From Candidatus Levyibacteriota bacterium (GTDB lineage Bacteria; Patescibacteriota; Microgenomatia; Levybacterales; UBA12049), in the NCBI GenBank assembly GCA_963722305.1, contig CAVRKE010000001.1, positions 501,549-565,548 on the forward strand: 64,000 bases of DNA, read 5' to 3'. Shown one piece after another: positions 2,955 through 44,588 of this stretch (positions are counted from its first letter, which is position 1; each line of letters opens with the position of its first letter). Position numbers and translations under genes: made by a program. The notes below the pieces were generated by a model. It made no database searches, had not been told where the DNA came from, and saw only the letters and a program-made list of their open reading frames with translations.

Positions 2955-3401
2955 ATGAAAAGTCAAAAAGGTTTTACATTAATCGAACTCCTCGTCGTCA
3001 TCGGAATACTTGCAATCCTCTTTTCAATTGTTTTAATTGCTATCAATCCAGCCAGGCAATTTAACCAAGCTAATGACACAAAAAGAAGAAGCGATACGCT
3101 GCAGATTTTGAACTCAATTCATCAGTATGCGGCTGAGCATTCCGGAAATCTACCAACAGGTTTAACAGCCGGGATGGCCGCAGTCGATGTTTCTGATACA
3201 ACCGGAGATGCTAATATCTGTGCGCAGATAATGCCAACTTACATTTCGGCTCTTCCGCAAGATCCGCAAAACAACAGTGGAGCACCAATCACAACCTGCA
3301 CCGGCTATGACACCGGCTATCAGGTTTCAGTAGATACACAGGGAAGAGTTACAGTTAGCGCACCGGATGCTAAACTAGGCACAGTGTCGGTAACCAGATA
3401 A
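2955..3401 (+). CDS. type IV pilin-like protein, tandem paralog
   Basis: Same prepilin N-terminus. The first ~190 bp and last ~60 bp are nearly identical at DNA level to 2504..2953; the central part differs. Confidence 0.8.
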   Translation: MKSQKGFTLIELLVVIGILAILFSIVLIAINPARQFNQANDTKRRSDTLQILNSIHQYAAEHSGNLPTGLTAGMAAVDVSDTTGDANICAQIMPTYISALPQDPQNNSGAPITTCTGYDTGYQVSVDTQGRVTVSAPDAKLGTVSVTR

Positions 3402-4060: not shown

Positions 4061-5836
4061 TTACCTTCCAAACCAAGCATCTAGAATCTTTTTGGCGATC
4101 GGCGCGGCCACGTTACTGCCTTCTCCGCTGTTTTCCGAAAGGACCGTGATAACAATTTGCGGATTGTAAGCCGGCGCAAACAGCGTCACCCAGGCATGGG
4201 CTAAGGTATTTTCTCCACCGTTTTCCGCCGTGCCGGTTTTGCAGGCTAAAACCACCTGGCGCATATCGGCCGAGCCCGAAGAAGGGTCAACCCCTAGAAT
4301 ATTTTTCCCGTCGATGGGAAGCTTTGGATTCTTAACCATGTAATTAAACAAGGGCCAAGCCACACCCCCGGGACTGCAGGCTTCAACCATCCCCTCCTTA
4401 ATTAAATCCGCCGAATGGTTGTCTAAAAGATTGACGCTGAGAAGTTGGGAACCAAAATCCTTCATTAAGTGCGGCTTATACAAATTGCCGTTATTGGCAA
4501 TCGCCTGCGTCCAGGAATTAACCTGTAAAGGCGTGGTTAAGAGGTAACCCTGGCCAATTCCGTAGTGATAGGTATCCCCCAAGTACCATTGTTCGCCGAT
4601 ATTTTTGAGTTTCCATTCCGGCGTCGGCACTAATCCCGGTGCTTCTCCCGGCAAATCAATCCCCAAGTCTTCCCCCAACCCGAATTTCTTGGCCATTGCC
4701 GAAACTTTATCAACCCCCACTTTTTCCGCCAGTTGATAAAAGAAAATATCGTTGGAACGCTTGATGCCTTTGACAATGTTGACCATGCCGTCGGTTCCAC
4801 CGTAACCGGTGTAATACCAGTTGGAAAAAGAAAATGCACCGACCGTCAAAACGCCGGTATCTTCGATTTGCCAGTTTTCGTCAATGATTTTATCAGCCAG
4901 GCCCGCCGAAGCGACTATTAATTTAAAGGTTGAACCCGGTGGATAGACTCCTGAAATTGCCCGATTTAAAAGCGGCTGGTTTTGCGAATCGGAAAGAATA
5001 TCCGATAAGCTTAAATATGAACTGGCAGTCGAGATTTTATAATCCTGTCGCATCGTAAACAGGTTAGGGTCAAACGAAGGCTTGGAAACCATAGCCAGTA
5101 TTTCACCGTTAGGAGTTGAAACTATGGCCGCGCCCTTTTTGACGTCTTTCATGGCTGTAAAGACCGCCTCCTGAAGCTTTGCATCTAAAGTCAAAACGAT
5201 ATCTTGTCCGGCAACCGGGTCATTCTGGCCAAGCACCCTGACCAAATTGCCCCTCGCATCAACTTCGAAAAGCTCCTTCCCGTCGGTCCCTTTTAATAAA
5301 GACTCGTATTCCTGCTCGATTCCGGATTGTCCGACTAAATCTGATGGCGAGTATCCGGCGTATTGAGGATCCGACAGTTGCTCTTTGGAAATCTGGCCGA
5401 TATAGCCCAAAACGTGGGCGAAGGCTTCTTTGTACGGATAGCTTCTTAAAGAATCCACTTCCAAATTATTTTTGCCCGCAGCAATTGCCTGCAAAGCTTC
5501 ATCCTGATTTAAAATTACCGTTTTACCGTTAACAATTTCCCTTACTCCGGGCGCGTTAAAAACTAAAGGCGTACCGTTTCGGTCAAAAATTATTCCTCTT
5601 GGCGCATGGATGGTAACGGTTTTGGTGCGGTTACTGTCCGAAAGGTAGCGGTAATAATAACCTTCCAAGACCTGCAGAAAAAATAAGCGGAAAAAAAGAA
5701 TTGAAAATAACACCAGCAAAGCCAAAGGCAGCAAATAATTCCTGTTGGAATGCCCACCACCCTCGTAATCCCATTTTCTTCTTTTGTGGTCGCCCTTAGT
5801 AATATAATCGCCAAAAGCGATACCCGGTTTATTCAT
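4061..5836 (-). CDS. mrdA: penicillin-binding protein 2 (peptidoglycan D,D-transpeptidase)
   Basis: N-terminal transmembrane helix plus the transpeptidase motifs GSTFK (SxxK), SND (SxN) and KTGTAE (KTG). Adjacent to mreCD. Confidence 0.9.
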   Translation of the reverse strand: MNKPGIAFGDYITKGDHKRRKWDYEGGGHSNRNYLLPLALLVLFSILFFRLFFLQVLEGYYYRYLSDSNRTKTVTIHAPRGIIFDRNGTPLVFNAPGVREIVNGKTVILNQDEALQAIAAGKNNLEVDSLRSYPYKEAFAHVLGYIGQISKEQLSDPQYAGYSPSDLVGQSGIEQEYESLLKGTDGKELFEVDARGNLVRVLGQNDPVAGQDIVLTLDAKLQEAVFTAMKDVKKGAAIVSTPNGEILAMVSKPSFDPNLFTMRQDYKISTASSYLSLSDILSDSQNQPLLNRAISGVYPPGSTFKLIVASAGLADKIIDENWQIEDTGVLTVGAFSFSNWYYTGYGGTDGMVNIVKGIKRSNDIFFYQLAEKVGVDKVSAMAKKFGLGEDLGIDLPGEAPGLVPTPEWKLKNIGEQWYLGDTYHYGIGQGYLLTTPLQVNSWTQAIANNGNLYKPHLMKDFGSQLLSVNLLDNHSADLIKEGMVEACSPGGVAWPLFNYMVKNPKLPIDGKNILGVDPSSGSADMRQVVLACKTGTAENGGENTLAHAWVTLFAPAYNPQIVITVLSENSGEGSNVAAPIAKKILDAWFGR

Positions 5837-33795: not shown

Positions 33796-33874
33796 ACTCT
33801 TTCTTTACATGCCCCTAAATTTCTGTTAAAATGTTGACAAATCCCATTATCCTAGTGTATTGGGATTTTAATTT

Positions 33875-34063
33875 ATGGCAACCACCCCGGCAAATTTTTT
33901 ACGCGAAGTTCGGGATGAACTGAAAAAAGTTGTCTGGCCGACCCGGGACGAAATAATCAGGCTTACGGGCGTTGTCATATTGGTCAGTTTACTGGTTGGA
34001 GTTTTCCTGGGTGGAACCGACTTTATTTTGACTAAATTAGTTGCAATATTAGTAACCAGATAA
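33875..34063 (+). CDS. secE: preprotein translocase subunit SecE
   Basis: 62 aa. FLREVRDELKKVVWPTRDE followed by a single transmembrane helix. Confidence 0.8.
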   Translation: MATTPANFLREVRDELKKVVWPTRDEIIRLTGVVILVSLLVGVFLGGTDFILTKLVAILVTR

Positions 34064-34069
34064 TAAATT

Positions 34070-34861
34070 ATGACCGACAATAAAAAGACAAAAATTGAAG
34101 AAACACCTGAAGATACAACTCTGGTCGAAAAAGCTGTTGAAGAAGAAAAAACCGAACAAAAAGTCGAAGAAGTTGTCGACGAGGTGATTGAAGAGAAAAC
34201 CGAGCAAACGGAGAACAGCGAAATCCCGAGCGCAGCCGAGGGAGAAACCCCTGAAGGAAACGAAGTTTCCGAAGGGACCGAAGAGACTAAGGAAGAACCC
34301 GCAGTTGAAGAAACGCCCGCACCCGCTTCCTTGTCCGATGACGCCAAATGGTACATTGTCCACACTTATTCCGGACATGAAAACAAAGTTTCCAAATCCC
34401 TAAGGCAGCGCATTGAATCGATGGGTTTTGAAGACCGCATTTTTGACATTATTGTTCCGACCCGCGAAACCTTTAAAGTTTCCGGCGGTAAAAAAGAAAC
34501 AGTTAAAGAAAAGATTTTCCCCGGCTATGTCTTGGTCAAAATGATTTTGGACGACGAAAGTTGGCTTCTGGTTAGAACCACCCAGGGCGTCACCGCTTTT
34601 ATCGGCGCCGGCAACAAACCGACCCCGATTTCCGACAAAGAAGTGGCGGCCATCCAAAAGTTTATGGCCACCGAAGAACCATTATACAAAGCCTCTTTTG
34701 TGGTTGGCGAAGCGGTCAAGATTACGGACGGGCCGTTTACCGATTTCCTCGGCACCATTGACAATATTGACGAATCCAAGGGAAAACTGAAGGTTTTGGT
34801 AAGCATTTTCGGACGAGAAACTCCTGTTGAGCTAGATTTTCTCCAAGTATCAAAATTATAA
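34070..34861 (+). CDS. nusG: transcription termination/antitermination factor NusG with an acidic N-terminal extension
   Basis: NGN domain (KWYIVHTYSGHENKV), KOW motif (GEAVKITDGPFTDFLGTI), ~95-aa Glu-rich N-terminal extension. Confidence 0.9.
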   Translation: MTDNKKTKIEETPEDTTLVEKAVEEEKTEQKVEEVVDEVIEEKTEQTENSEIPSAAEGETPEGNEVSEGTEETKEEPAVEETPAPASLSDDAKWYIVHTYSGHENKVSKSLRQRIESMGFEDRIFDIIVPTRETFKVSGGKKETVKEKIFPGYVLVKMILDDESWLLVRTTQGVTAFIGAGNKPTPISDKEVAAIQKFMATEEPLYKASFVVGEAVKITDGPFTDFLGTIDNIDESKGKLKVLVSIFGRETPVELDFLQVSKL

Positions 34862-34873
34862 TAATGAAAATCT

Positions 34874-34968
34874 AGCGAAATCCTGAGCGTTAGCGAAGGA
34901 TTGAATACGGCTTCTTGCAAGTGAGTAAGCTTTAGCTTACGAAATCCTGAGCGAAAGCGAAGGATCAG
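34874..34968. repeat. two copies of a ~28-nt intergenic repeat (AGCGARATCCTKAGCG-NTAGCGAAGGA)
   Basis: 34874-34903 and 34939-34968. Related copies at 44501-44530 and 45858-45887. Confidence 0.7.
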
Positions 34969-35203
34969 TAGACATTTTAAGATAGAATAAGTATAATAGA
35001 AAAACTTATTACGAGTCTGGGAGACCGTAAGGTCGTTTGAACCAGTAGATAAGAACCTCTTTTTGAGACTTTTCTACTTTCAAATTTTCAGTTTTAATAA
35101 TAATTTTTGCGGGGAGCTTGCAAAATTTTTGAAGGACGACAAGCGAATTACGGGTCCGAAAAAATTTTCGTAAGCGACCCAAGCAAATCTTTAGAAAGTA
35201 AAT

Positions 35204-35314
35204 ATGGCTAAAAAGATTAAGACAATCATTAAAATTAACATTCCGGCCGGAGCAGCCCGCCTGCCATCGCTGGTAGCTCAGGCATGGAACGCTATTATGA
35301 AAGGACGAAATTAA
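35204..35314 (+). CDS. 36-codon uORF duplicating the N-terminus of L11; stops 1 nt before the rplK start
   Basis: MAKKIKTIIKINIPAG is identical to the rplK N-terminus, with 11 synonymous and 0 non-synonymous codon differences. The rest is a frame-shifted decayed copy of rplK 5' sequence. Confidence 0.5.
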   Translation: MAKKIKTIIKINIPAGAARLPSLVAQAWNAIMKGRN

Positions 35315-35315
35315 A

Positions 35316-35738
35316 GTGGCGAAGAAAATCAAGACAATAATTAAGATAAATATACCTGCCGGGCAGGCCACGCCTGCGCCACCGGTGGGAACGGCTTTGG
35401 GACCACACGGATTACCGATTATGGAGTTCGTCAAGGCCTTTAACGACAGGACTGCCGAGCAAAAAGGCACCATTGTTCCGGCTGTAATTACCGTTTACGA
35501 AGACCGCACTTTTTCGTTCATTGTCAAAAAATCTCCGATTGCGGAAATGATTAAAAAAGCGATGAACCTGGAGAAAGGTTCCGGCAAACCGGGGACAGAA
35601 TCGGCAGGAACATTGACTAAAACTCAGGCCGAGCAAATTGCCAAAGACAAGCTGGAAGATTTGAATACCGACGACGTGACTCAAGCTGTCAAAATTGTGG
35701 AAGGAGTCGCCCGCTCAATGGGCATCAAAGTACAATAA
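35316..35738 (+). CDS. rplK: 50S ribosomal protein L11 (GTG start)
   Basis: PPVGTALGPHGLPIMEFVKAFN...VITVYEDRTFSF is canonical L11. Confidence 0.9.
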   Translation: MAKKIKTIIKINIPAGQATPAPPVGTALGPHGLPIMEFVKAFNDRTAEQKGTIVPAVITVYEDRTFSFIVKKSPIAEMIKKAMNLEKGSGKPGTESAGTLTKTQAEQIAKDKLEDLNTDDVTQAVKIVEGVARSMGIKVQ

Positions 35739-35739
35739 T

Positions 35740-36639
35740 ATGGGAAAAATTAGAGTCAGAACTCTTGGCGACGAAAGCCAGGAAGAACAACAAAAAAACG
35801 AGGTCAAGAAAAAACACGAGGCTAAATTGAACGCAGCGAAATCCTCGACGAGAGGAAAGACGACCAAGGCTCCCGGCATGAAAGGCGGCGAAAGAGTGGT
35901 TTCGGTTGGCCCGAGCGAAGAAGAATTAGCCGCTTTGGATAATAAAGGGGTGGCAGAAGAGGGAGGGCTCCCGACAGCGCGCAGTGAAGAGAGCACTGGC
36001 GGGAAGGAAACCTCTGACAGGACCCCGACAAAAAAGCCTAAAAAGGAACAAAAAAACTTCCATTCGCAAAAATACGAGAAACTGTTAGCCGAAGTTGACC
36101 GCAGCAAGACTTATCCTTTAAACGAAGCGCTGGCGCTTTTGCAGAAACTGCAGCGGAAATCTTTTGACGAAACCGTTGAATTGCATGTTAATACCTTAAC
36201 CAGTGGTATTTCCGGCCAAATTACTCTTCCCCACGGCACCGGTAAAACCACCCGCGTCGCCATTGCCGACGACAAAATAATTGCCGAAGTCGAAAAAGGA
36301 GTGATTAATTTTGACGTTTTGGTGGCAGAACCAAGTATGATGCCAAAACTGGCCAAGGTGGCTAAAGTACTAGGACCAAGAGGCTTAATGCCAAACCCCA
36401 AAAACGGCACGATTTCGCCAAAGCCGGAAGAAGTGGCCAAAAAATATGCCGGCGGACAAATGAACTTTAAAACCGAGACCAAAGCACCGATTATTCACTT
36501 AACTGTCGGCAAAATTTCCTTTGGTCCGGAAAAATTAACCGAGAACATTGAAGCATTAATTGCCGCCATCAAAAAAACTAATATCGTAAACGTTACCTTG
36601 AAATCTACAATGAGCCCGGGGCTGAAGATAAAGATCTAA
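35740..36639 (+). CDS. rplA: 50S ribosomal protein L1 with a ~110-aa Lys/Glu-rich N-terminal extension
   Basis: TLPHGTGKTTRVAI, VLGPRGLMPNPKNGT. ATG at 35740, directly after the rplK stop. Confidence 0.85.
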   Translation: MGKIRVRTLGDESQEEQQKNEVKKKHEAKLNAAKSSTRGKTTKAPGMKGGERVVSVGPSEEELAALDNKGVAEEGGLPTARSEESTGGKETSDRTPTKKPKKEQKNFHSQKYEKLLAEVDRSKTYPLNEALALLQKLQRKSFDETVELHVNTLTSGISGQITLPHGTGKTTRVAIADDKIIAEVEKGVINFDVLVAEPSMMPKLAKVAKVLGPRGLMPNPKNGTISPKPEEVAKKYAGGQMNFKTETKAPIIHLTVGKISFGPEKLTENIEALIAAIKKTNIVNVTLKSTMSPGLKIKI

Positions 36640-36684
36640 GCCTCAATTTGACAATTTTTTACCTCAGTAGTATTATCCGCAAGT

Positions 36685-36942
36685 ATGCCATGCCTACATG
36701 AATTGGGTTTAGTACGAAGAATTAAAAATACAGGCACACATATCGCACGATCGATTGACAGATTTGAACTGAAGGTTGAAGGGCTTAGTTCAAGGCAAAA
36801 AAGACAAATTTATTTTGTTATAGTAGCATTTATGTTAGCTACTGTAGGTTCCATTGGCGCAGTTGCAGGTAATGACTTAGGCGCTGCGATGCCTTTCTCC
36901 GGAGCTGCCGCATCGATATTTGGTGCAGCCATGAACTCCTAA
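36685..36942 (+). CDS. hypothetical small membrane protein
   Basis: 85-aa ORF with one hydrophobic segment and a Gly/Ala-rich C-terminus. First gene of the inserted island. Confidence 0.3.
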   Translation: MPCLHELGLVRRIKNTGTHIARSIDRFELKVEGLSSRQKRQIYFVIVAFMLATVGSIGAVAGNDLGAAMPFSGAAASIFGAAMNS

Positions 36943-44472: not shown

Positions 44473-44588
44473 GTTAAAACCTAAGACAGCGAGTCGAGCG
44501 GAGCGAGATCCTGAGCGCTAGCGAAGGACGAACTTCAATCCATAAATCTCGCCGAGGAGAAACTAAGTTCATTTTGAACTTAAAGTAA

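Follow-up and report, generated by a model that had tools for sequence, protein, structure and literature searches.

A leader open reading frame that copies the L11 N-terminus lies directly before rplK in a Candidatus Levyibacteriota bacterium and may couple its own translation to that of the gene

In the window, a stretch of 64,000 nucleotides from a Candidatus Levyibacteriota bacterium (contig CAVRKE010000001.1, positions 501,549 to 565,548), the gene of ribosomal protein L11, rplK, is preceded by a 36-codon upstream open reading frame (uORF) that encodes the N-terminus of L11 a second time and ends one base before the rplK start codon. Comparison with related loci leads us to favor, at a probability of roughly 0.58, the reading that this uORF goes back to an old tandem duplication that took in part of rplK, its 5' end; the copy would have been kept as a translated leader open reading frame (ORF) and would be coupled to rplK via termination-reinitiation together with a long-range RNA helix.

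The uORF, MAKKIKTIIKINIPAGAARLPSLVAQAWNAIMKGRN, runs from an ATG at 35204 to a TAA at 35312-35314, and the single base A 35315 separates it from the rplK GTG at 35316. Its peptide, MAKKIKTIIKINIPAG, matches the N-terminus of L11, with codons 1-16 encoding the same residues in both ORFs, and the 12 single-base differences found between the two sets of codons (in 11 of codons 2-16, plus ATG for GTG at the start) are all synonymous or start-preserving. These facts had been described in an earlier note made from the letters of the window, and they were confirmed here. The two copies form a direct repeat of 55 nucleotides (nt), at 35196-35250 and 35308-35362, with 75% identity and a spacing of 112 nt. 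Since only about one quarter of random substitutions are synonymous, and since the same architecture was found in 10 other lineages, a chance origin of the match (12 of 12 differences synonymous, probability <1e-6) is excluded. In the window, the rplK head starts with GTG and uses AAG, ATA and GGG, which are rarer codons, whereas the uORF head has AAA and ATT, the codons that the genome prefers. When measured against the L11 of relatives (PAGAATPAPP), the intact upstream copy amounts to 18 codons, because A17/A18 is the common state and the Q17 of the window's rplK is derived; the uORF-encoded head ends in ...IPAGAATPAPPVG (A17) and the rplK-encoded head in ...IPAGQATPAPPVG (Q17). Past codon 18, the upstream copy continues colinear with rplK codons 19-36, up to an 'ATTATG', with several insertions and deletions, a homology detected by local alignment at P = 0.003-0.01 against shuffled sequences. 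The elements concerned are the following.

35204-35257, plus strand: uORF head, codons 1-18, MAKKIKTIIKINIPAGAA, with preferred codons and an AU-rich start of the ancestral type that lacks a Shine-Dalgarno (SD) sequence
35246-35265, plus strand: 5' strand of the proposed helix, with the core GCCUGCC at 35259-35265 (RNAalifold)
35255-35283, plus strand: GC-rich RNA element of the uORF tail, comprising GCCCGCCUGCCAUCGC (35255-35270) and GCUCAGGC (35276-35283)
35300-35305, plus strand: SD of rplK, AAAGGA, within the 3' end of the uORF
35312-35318, plus strand: stop-start junction TAA-A-GTG
35316-35738, plus strand: rplK (L11, 140 amino acids (aa), GTG start; from the ORF list)
35355-35386, plus strand: 3' strand of the proposed helix, rplK codons 14-24, CCUGCCGGGCAGGCC, with GGCAGGC at 35362-35368 and CUGC...CCGGU extending to 35386

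We refer to leader ORFs that share the window's whole architecture, including its frameshifted tail ('..G-x-A-R-L-P-S..A-Q-A'), as class A. A pattern scan of a metagenome collection, using M-A-K-K-[IV]-K-T followed by K-K-[IV]-K-T after a gap of 51-111 nt, returned at least 19 loci, 17 of them true rplK leaders, and six lineages with the window's architecture were obtained (loci L094, the same as L100, L097, L098, L101 and L086, plus L109, which came from a peptide search). A profile of four class A peptides, searched against 1.84 billion representative proteins, yielded further members, and in all four cases for which the DNA was examined (L110/111, L112, L113 and L114) the uORF lay directly before rplK. 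Class A comprises at least 11 Levybacteria-like lineages, the window included, which come from JGI, ENA, NCBI and Logan assemblies and are not phylogenetically independent of each other, and it is always found directly 5' of rplK.

In all 11 lineages the uORF begins with ATG, in 10 of them without an SD, which is also the usual state of rplK starts outside class A (82/90 loci), and in all 11 a strong SD (AAGGA, GGAGG or similar) stands before rplK, inside the 3' end of the uORF. The uORF frame is open in 11/11 between codon 19 and the start of rplK, whereas the two other frames are not kept open, and the stop ends between -17 and +6 nt from the rplK start in every lineage, a pattern that fits the termination-reinitiation coupling put forward in the earlier note. 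The variable columns of the head fall mostly at third codon positions. The conserved start and open frame, the stop near the main start and the codon-periodic conservation are together those of a translationally coupled leader ORF.

Nucleotide identities among the heads, counted over 51 positions, were 38-43 between uORF heads and 37-44 between rplK heads, compared with 29-37 between a uORF head and an rplK head, whether within or across genomes, except for the own pair of L086 (41). The clustering of uORF heads with uORF heads and of rplK heads with rplK heads argues for one old duplication with no recent gene conversion. It agrees with the old partial tandem duplication proposed at the outset, and gene conversion, which had been named as the process that might explain away the synonymous-only pattern, was not borne out: uORF heads are closer to each other than to their own rplK, and own-pair identity is near the minimum possible (21-27/33).

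Over residues 8-18, which no search pattern imposed, the ratio of nonsynonymous to synonymous changes per site (pN/pS) was 0.28 among uORF heads and 0.33 among rplK heads, which speaks for selection on the uORF. Between the two heads of one genome, pN was 0.04, with synonymous sites saturated, and over residues 3-13 there were 0-1 nonsynonymous differences, compared with about 10 or more expected under neutrality, next to 8-14 synonymous ones. Moreover, the head follows its own L11: the residues common to both heads include L at position 11, T at position 12 in L097/L101, A14-G15 in L109, T8/A13 in L086, V9/V11 in L114 ('TIVKVNI') and V5 in L112, while in L110 both heads have one more residue behind A2, and such lineage-specific residues are encoded by different codons in each head (I11L by TTA versus CTT, N12T by ACA versus ACG). 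When the uORF-rplK pairing was permuted, this co-variation gave P = 5e-6 (11 lineages, residues 8-13), 1.5e-4 (nine lineages) and, in the most conservative set of seven lineages, from which the two highest own-pair identities were left out, P = 0.005. Identical codons are found between the two heads in 30 of 116 cases as against 49.6 expected (26%, compared with 35% in cross-genome pairs), and this codon avoidance suggests selection against nucleotide identity. The claim that only the peptide of the first 16 codons had been preserved thus stands as regards selection on the peptide (pN/pS, own-pair pN and the permutations), though not in its 'only', as the preserved part extends to 18 codons and the tail is kept as RNA.

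Two other sources of these patterns were considered and rejected. An antisense gene cannot account for the codon periodicity, since the frame on the opposite strand is open only inconsistently and is related differently to the two heads; an in-frame fusion or frameshift into L11 is disfavored in that the start offset is 0, 1 or 2 mod 3 depending on the lineage, always with an intervening stop.

The tail of the uORF is conserved as RNA and not as peptide. The core of the tail, GCCCGCCTGCCATCGC...GCTCAGGC, hardly varies at first, second or third codon positions, and in L086, where a 1-nt deletion shifts the frame, its nucleotides are retained; GCCCGCCUG(C/U)CA.. is universal in class A, and GCUCAGGC is present in 9/11. 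The earlier note had regarded this part as a homologous copy broken by indels, and while the homology holds, the near invariance of the core speaks against its being simply broken. The core sequence CGCCUGCC can base-pair with GGGCAGGC, which is invariant at codons 16-18 of rplK, codons 14-18 reading (C/G)CUG(C/G)CGGGCAGGC in every class A locus. At these codons GGGCAGGC was found in 15/15 uORF-bearing loci (class A, L088/L091 and L092/L103) and in 0/86 others, which ties Q17 to the uORF, and residue 17 of the uORF head stays the common A, E, S or V. By this comparison, L11 residues 14-17 appear to have been reshaped to (P/A)(A/G)GQ so as to encode the RNA motif GGGCAGGC.

RNAalifold predicts that uORF codons 13-21 pair with rplK codons 16-25 in a long-range helix whose core is GCCUGCC/GGCAGGC; inside it would lie the hairpin of the tail together with the SD, start codon and head of rplK. 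In the 11-lineage alignment the helices were 89% paired, compared with 24-52% when the 3' strand was slid by 1-3 columns, and outer pairs at third codon positions covary (78:246 as CG, AU, UA and UG; 84:237 as AU, GC and GU), with a covariation score above that of all but 7/500 shuffles. A C-to-U change in L110 keeps a G-U pair in the helix. In the L088 type, the tail (GGCCCUGCACCAAUU) is a different one and could pair without a mismatch over 14 bp with codons 12-17 of the rplK in the same locus (z = -4.9), which gives independent support for pairing at this position. Duplex energy was discarded as a general test of pairing, as GC-rich shuffles fold nearly as well (z about -1 in most members).

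We propose that a single out-of-frame tandem duplication of about 110 nt, covering the first ~36 rplK codons, founded class A. Such an event would at once give a short ORF ending in an AT-rich stretch before the second start, so that viability would from then on depend on re-initiation. The upstream copy would have kept the ancestral SD-less start and the first 18 codons, and from codon 19 onward would have been remodelled into the GC-rich RNA element, the rplK SD and a stop abutting or overlapping the rplK start, with rplK codons 16-24 recoded to GGG-CAG-GC to pair with the GC-rich element; selection would have fixed the stop at the rplK start, an SD that holds terminating ribosomes and the GC-rich helix. 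The helix would close the rplK ribosome-binding site (RBS) and head into a loop of ~100 nt, and ribosomes would enter at the SD-less uORF start, translate the uORF, melt the helix, terminate at the rplK start and re-initiate there with the help of the SD. With re-initiation following uORF translation in this manner, synthesis of L11 and of the coupled L1 would depend on translation of the leader. The L1 gene, rplA, would follow by stop-start coupling, and feedback by L1 would act through separate sites at 35017-35045 and 35958-36015. We infer uORF translation, its coupling to rplK and the gating of rplK by the helix from sequence patterns.

Several observations weigh against this proposal. With its strong SD, rplK may initiate independently of the uORF, and coupling alone leaves the conservation of residues 8-18 and the tracking of L11 unaccounted for. 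The core helix, being invariant, gives no covariation of its own; in L097/L101 a G-to-A change breaks one core pair; and duplex energy clearly beats that of shuffles only in L088, the window and L086. A consistent occlusion of the rplK SD and AUG was not seen in folding, where unpaired probabilities vary by lineage, and because of this inconsistency simple RBS occlusion is not claimed. The sample was found partly by patterns and profiles that contain the head, residues 8-13 and the comparison with the own rplK being the parts that no search imposed. Finally, the distribution is patchy. The uORF is absent from the closest relatives, L081 (96% L11 identity), L082-84 (94%) and L085 (93-94%), and on a tree of L11 bodies class A is scattered among uORF-less relatives: the window's nearest class A neighbor is 83% identical, while its 96% and 94% neighbors lack the uORF, as does L003, the nearest neighbor of L105 (93%). 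This scatter, with uORF-less loci as nearest neighbors, points to repeated loss or lateral movement, and on this evidence the class A module is dispensable, often lost or laterally spread. Conservation in relatives, on which the earlier note had staked its reading, is accordingly found in ten more distant lineages and not in the nearest ones.

As to the latter, the nusG stop and the rplK ATG are 2 nt apart in L081, the leader of L082-84 measures 100 nt, and that of L085 is of another kind. By its L11 protein, the window falls among Levybacteria-like Microgenomates (Patescibacteria/CPR). In a large protein collection, the L11 proteins nearest to that of the window are P0001, P0004 and P0006, at 96%, 94% and 94% identity. 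Among the 80 nearest species-representative genomes, none carries a class A uORF, and an upstream copy of the head, of a different kind, occurs only in L055; with 0/80, the genome collection alone would suggest a lack of conservation. Over its first 90 nt, the window's rplK shares 82-84% identity with the class A locus L105, compared with 77-80% with L081/L082. This slight excess is a weak hint of lateral movement that was not significant, and a recombination boundary inside the window's rplK was dropped.

Copies of the rplK head are found upstream of the gene in other forms as well. In what we term class B, uORFs of 15-28 aa start with MAKKVKTII-RT and run into a hairpin with an AAC/AAC internal loop, UAAG-AAC-[variable stem-loop]-AAC-CUUG, whose outer stem comes from head codons 6-9; since the frame over this motif differs between members, the motif is one of RNA. 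In L055, the uORF ATG overlaps the nusG stop (TAATG). The class B loci are:

L055, 2928-2984: class B uORF
L087, 425-496: class B uORF
L093, 367-438: class B uORF
L102, L104 (minus strand): class B uORFs

A third type of uORF, MAKKIKTIVKIQIPAGQALHQFSFYII followed by a stop, lies in L088 at 5488-5611 (the same as L091 6719-6842), with a TATATAAT box between it and rplK. L092 harbors, at 725-1023 (the same as L103 2136-2434), three tandem head uORFs, MAKKVKTQMRTYAYA, MAKKVKTQIRHSLALGLVLGLHLE and MAKKVKTQIRLSLALGLVFVLI, each ending in a stop, and L112 has at 227-262 an extra mini-copy, MAKKIKTIRSR and a stop, upstream of its class A uORF. The class B, L088-type and triple-repeat duplications arose separately from class A, and together with the L112 case they indicate that duplication of the rplK head is recurrent in the clade and can be iterated.

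How far other explanations account for these data depends mainly on whether the head is read as protein. One could suppose that the copy is untranslated and works only as RNA, with a trans factor or the initiating ribosome reading the same non-wobble nucleotides in both heads and the tail/rplK helix serving as a protein-binding or structural switch. The conservation of the tail at the nucleotide level regardless of frame would suit this idea, as would the RNA motif that class B members keep under varying frames and the limits set to the third base in Lys and Ile codons (purine only; never G in AUH), which could have causes at the RNA level. It is nonetheless unlikely, given a 3-nt periodicity over 18 codons, an ATG kept in 11/11, a frame open exactly to the rplK start in 11/11 and parallel amino-acid replacements made with different codons in the two heads; we know of no RNA-binding mode that reads two of every three bases over 50 nt. 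If, instead, the nascent or released L11-like peptide were itself a signal, the second option of the earlier note, seen by an L11-recognizing factor or inside the ribosome, so that the supply of L11 feeds back, then both the protein-level conservation of the head and its co-evolution with the own L11 would be predicted directly, as by no other class of model, and the Lys-rich head would resemble known nascent-chain effectors, which are Lys-rich. Yet the C-terminal half is not conserved as protein (the L086 frameshift, the last 10-15 residues variable), no candidate sensor was identified, and a nascent chain of 32-47 aa is almost wholly inside the ribosome exit tunnel at termination, the class B peptides having just 15-28 aa, and we rate peptide-mediated autoregulation as improbable too. 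More broadly, that the identity of the peptide is itself functional, whether as an A17-type L11 isoform made by bypass or as a decoy-ORF peptide read by a sensor that recognizes L11, we consider doubtful; the sensor version, if true, would be a bacterial counterpart of N-terminal-peptide autoregulation.

Bypass itself would require some ribosomes to leave the message at about codon 18 of the uORF (GCC) and to resume at codon 18 of rplK (GCN), skipping a 112-nt stem-loop and making an L11 whose N-terminus is encoded upstream. An evolution of the head in the manner of an L11 N-terminus, in step with the L11 body, would then be accounted for. The inner end of the predicted helix directly follows codon 18 of the uORF and directly precedes codon 19 of rplK, a geometry that a local palindrome plus a tandem duplication would give as well. 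The GCC-CGC that follows the head is nearly invariant, CGC being a minor Arg codon (4.3 per thousand, compared with 18 for AGA). However, take-off and landing codons are identical in only 2/11 (uORF codon 18 is GCC in 10/11, while that of rplK is GCC, GCA or GCT), the codon after take-off is CGC and not a stop, rplK has its own SD, start and conserved head in 11/11, the 112-nt gap is more than twice the 50 nt of gene 60, and the class B geometry does not fit, all of which makes bypass very unlikely. Highly improbable, and in large part refuted by the conservation, is a relic without function, either a decaying duplicate of the rplK 5' end or a fragment displaced from a foreign rplK, or else a scar of recombination or an artefact of assembly; the synonymous-only differences would then go back to divergence between functional genes. 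Here one may point to the uORF head being nearer to the rplK 5' ends of other genomes (83-86%) than to its own rplK (77%), to the patchy distribution, to the first 90 nt of rplK being slightly closer to L105 and to spacer segments that are found elsewhere in relatives. Against it stand the same architecture and frameshifted tail in 11 lineages from independent assemblies, heads that are only 60-84% identical among related loci and so do not represent one recently transferred segment, and a head that stayed intact while the tail changed, with 0-1 nonsynonymous differences over residues 3-13 where a neutral head would carry ~10 or more, and with stop placement, SD gain and the complementary rplK motif all conserved.

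Returning to the leader as a whole, the nusG-rplK spacer of the window measures 454 nt, and the rplA ATG follows 1 nt past the rplK stop (TAA-T-ATG). The neighboring genes and further elements are:

33875-34063: secE, upstream of nusG
34070-34861, plus strand: nusG, the gene upstream of the rplK leader (ORF list; Pfam NusG on the L081/L082 orthologues)
34969-34997, plus strand: promoter-like TAGACA-17-TATAAT (11/12 matches), the probable rplK-rplA promoter
35017-35045, plus strand: small L1-type hairpin CUGG-GA-GACC(guaa)GGUC-GUUUGAA-CCAG, which folds as drawn
35045-35077, plus strand: second leader hairpin GUAGA-UAAG-AAC-CUC..GAG-AC-UUUUCUAC, which resembles the class B uORF motif
35105-35130, plus strand: weak terminator-like hairpin (9 bp, 3 G-C) followed by UUUUU, between the L1-type leader and the uORF
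35740-36639, plus strand: rplA (L1, 299 aa, with a long N-terminal extension; Pfam Ribosomal_L1 on orthologues)
35958-36015, plus strand: larger L1-stalk-like element AGAGG-GA-GGGCUCCC...GGAAA-CCUCU in the rplA 5' region

The TATAAT box is conserved at the nusG end in L082, L094 and L109, and the L082-type leader is homologous to window positions 34969-35086. The hairpin at 35017-35045 is shared with the uORF-less L002, L003, L025, L042 and L082-84, its inner stems differing in sequence, and it fits the published description of L1-interacting RNA before rplK or rplA, namely a stem of 6-12 bp with an internal bulge holding a G-A pair and then an unpaired A (GGGAG-type; PMC3616713). Lying ~160 nt upstream, this L1-type site does not overlap the uORF. 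A second, larger candidate was found in the form of an ~85-nt GC-rich element set in-frame within the N-terminal extension of the window's L1; L085 has it both in its nusG-rplK leader and in its rplA region (2404-2486, 3094-3187), and in L110/L111 it directly follows rplK (2046-2130). With its outer stem, GA bulge and GGAAA, 35958-36015 is probably a second L1 autoregulatory site, or it may instead be a mobile element able to sit inside coding sequence.

In the uORF region itself (35204-35315), a pattern scan found no L1-type motif. A mimic of the L11-binding site, the GTPase-associated center, was sought by aligning 10 class A tails to Escherichia coli 23S nt 1051-1108, which gave P = 0.06-0.94 against shuffles; sequence mimicry of this site or of the L1 stalk by the tail was rejected as not significant, and apparent shared motifs (GCAGCC, AUC and UAGCUCA) fell because GCAGCC is not conserved among class A. 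The L1- or L11-binding mimic that the earlier note had proposed to look for over the uORF was therefore not found, the L1-type sites being those at 35017-45 and 35958-36015. Leaders of the L082 type lack the hairpin at 35105-35130, which may act as an attenuator or mark the seam of a rearrangement. Between the uORF and rplK, there is no terminator-like site on the plus strand of the kind that marks trpL- or hisL-type attenuators, and no arrest motif of the SecM, TnaC or Erm type was found in the peptides, whose last 10-15 residues are variable and whose frame differs in L086. Rfam searches of 33800-36800 at E<=10 gave nothing above chance, with no curated family over the leader or uORF, and at gathering score four tRNAs were the only matches in the whole window. 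Exact-sequence look-ups returned no record identical to the window's L11 or uORF, and among ATG-started ORFs of at least 90 aa in the window no other self-mimicking uORF was found.

Several segments of these leaders recur elsewhere. A dispersed palindrome, CGAAATCCTGAGCG(T/A)(T/A)AGCGAAGGAT, with arms AATCCT...AGGATT, is located in the window at 34876-34901, 34940-34965 and 44502-44528, and also in L004 (2865-2935), L039 (2848-2885), L073 (926-966) and L036 (2670-2691, minus strand). Window positions 35123-35170 (..GAAGGACGACAAGCGAAUUACGGGUCCGAAAAAAUUUU..) are 86-89% identical to DNA just 5' of secE in L001 (2141-2189) and L004 (1863-1890), and the segment resembles a transferable 5' leader module that can stand in front of various ORFs. 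In the L094/L105 lineage, an AT-rich uORF leader of ~90 nt is duplicated in the 158-nt rplK-rplA spacer (L105 2906-3000, 3533-3690), and the uORF leader of L097 resembles the rplA leader of L098 (..ttgactgactgaaaggaa..). From such likenesses, leader cassettes appear to have been shuffled between genes. L101 has an extra ORF-sized insertion of ~330 nt between nusG and the uORF, which is missing from its close relative L097.

In the known L11 operon, control lies with L1, which binds a small hairpin resembling rRNA ahead of rplK or rplA (Fu et al. 2013, PMC3616713), and in E. coli rplA is translationally coupled to rplK, according to Baughman and Nomura (1983) as cited in PMC3616713. The window resembles this system in its rplK-rplA order, its L1-type leader hairpin and its stop-start coupling to rplA, and differs from it in that an ORF copying L11 and a putative long-range helix stand between the L1 site and rplK, where the known system has no uORF. 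Bacterial regulatory uORFs act by translational coupling or by occlusion of the RBS (PMC13285730; PMC12121999). As in those cases, the stop abuts or overlaps the main start, and translation would be expected to remodel the RNA around the main RBS; theirs, however, are unrelated to the protein they control, whereas here the leader is a maintained, co-evolving copy of its first 18 residues, and the two coding sequences remain as far apart as synonymous change allows. Programmed bypassing in T4 gene 60 skips a 50-nt gap (PMC5462505; PMC6551183; bioRxiv 10.1101/2022.08.31.505936). The window shares with it a duplicated codon context flanking a structured gap and a Lys-rich upstream peptide, and skipping would yield the correct protein, but there are no matching codons, there is no stop after take-off, the downstream start is independent and the gap is 112 nt.

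In archaea, the L1 site of Methanococcus vannielii lies near, or within, the beginning of the ORF that it regulates. The class B hairpin, which begins at codons 6-10, is like that of this archaeal L1 operon (PMC3616713) an RNA structure just 3' of the start, while the GGGAG/GA-bulge signature of L1 sites is missing from class A and class B uORF structures. In the autoregulation of eukaryotic tubulin, the nascent N-terminal peptide is the cis signal for feedback on its own mRNA, which is alike as a concept and differs in the domain of life, in the machinery and in that the signal would here sit on a separate short ORF. A literature search on L11/rplK uORFs, on ribosomal leaders of Patescibacteria and on leader peptides matching a downstream N-terminus found nothing relevant. 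Coupled leader ORFs are known; the novelty here lies in one that repeats the N-terminus of the regulated protein, is maintained by selection and co-evolves with it, has its synonymous sites recoded and comes with a proposed long-range helix of its own.

For annotation, the finding means that ORFs of this kind, 30-47 aa long, are easily miscalled, and so is the GTG or ATG with which the following rplK begins. The textbook case of ribosomal-protein operon control is rRNA mimicry, and a leader ORF that copies the controlled protein lies outside that picture. Should the identity of the peptide be functional, as the selection data suggest, the element would possibly be more than a variant leader ORF. 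Constraint at the RNA level appears, moreover, to have reshaped a conserved ribosomal protein at L11 residues 14-17, and the recurrent duplication of the rplK head suggests a general way in which the SD-poor Microgenomates may insert regulation behind an SD-less start.

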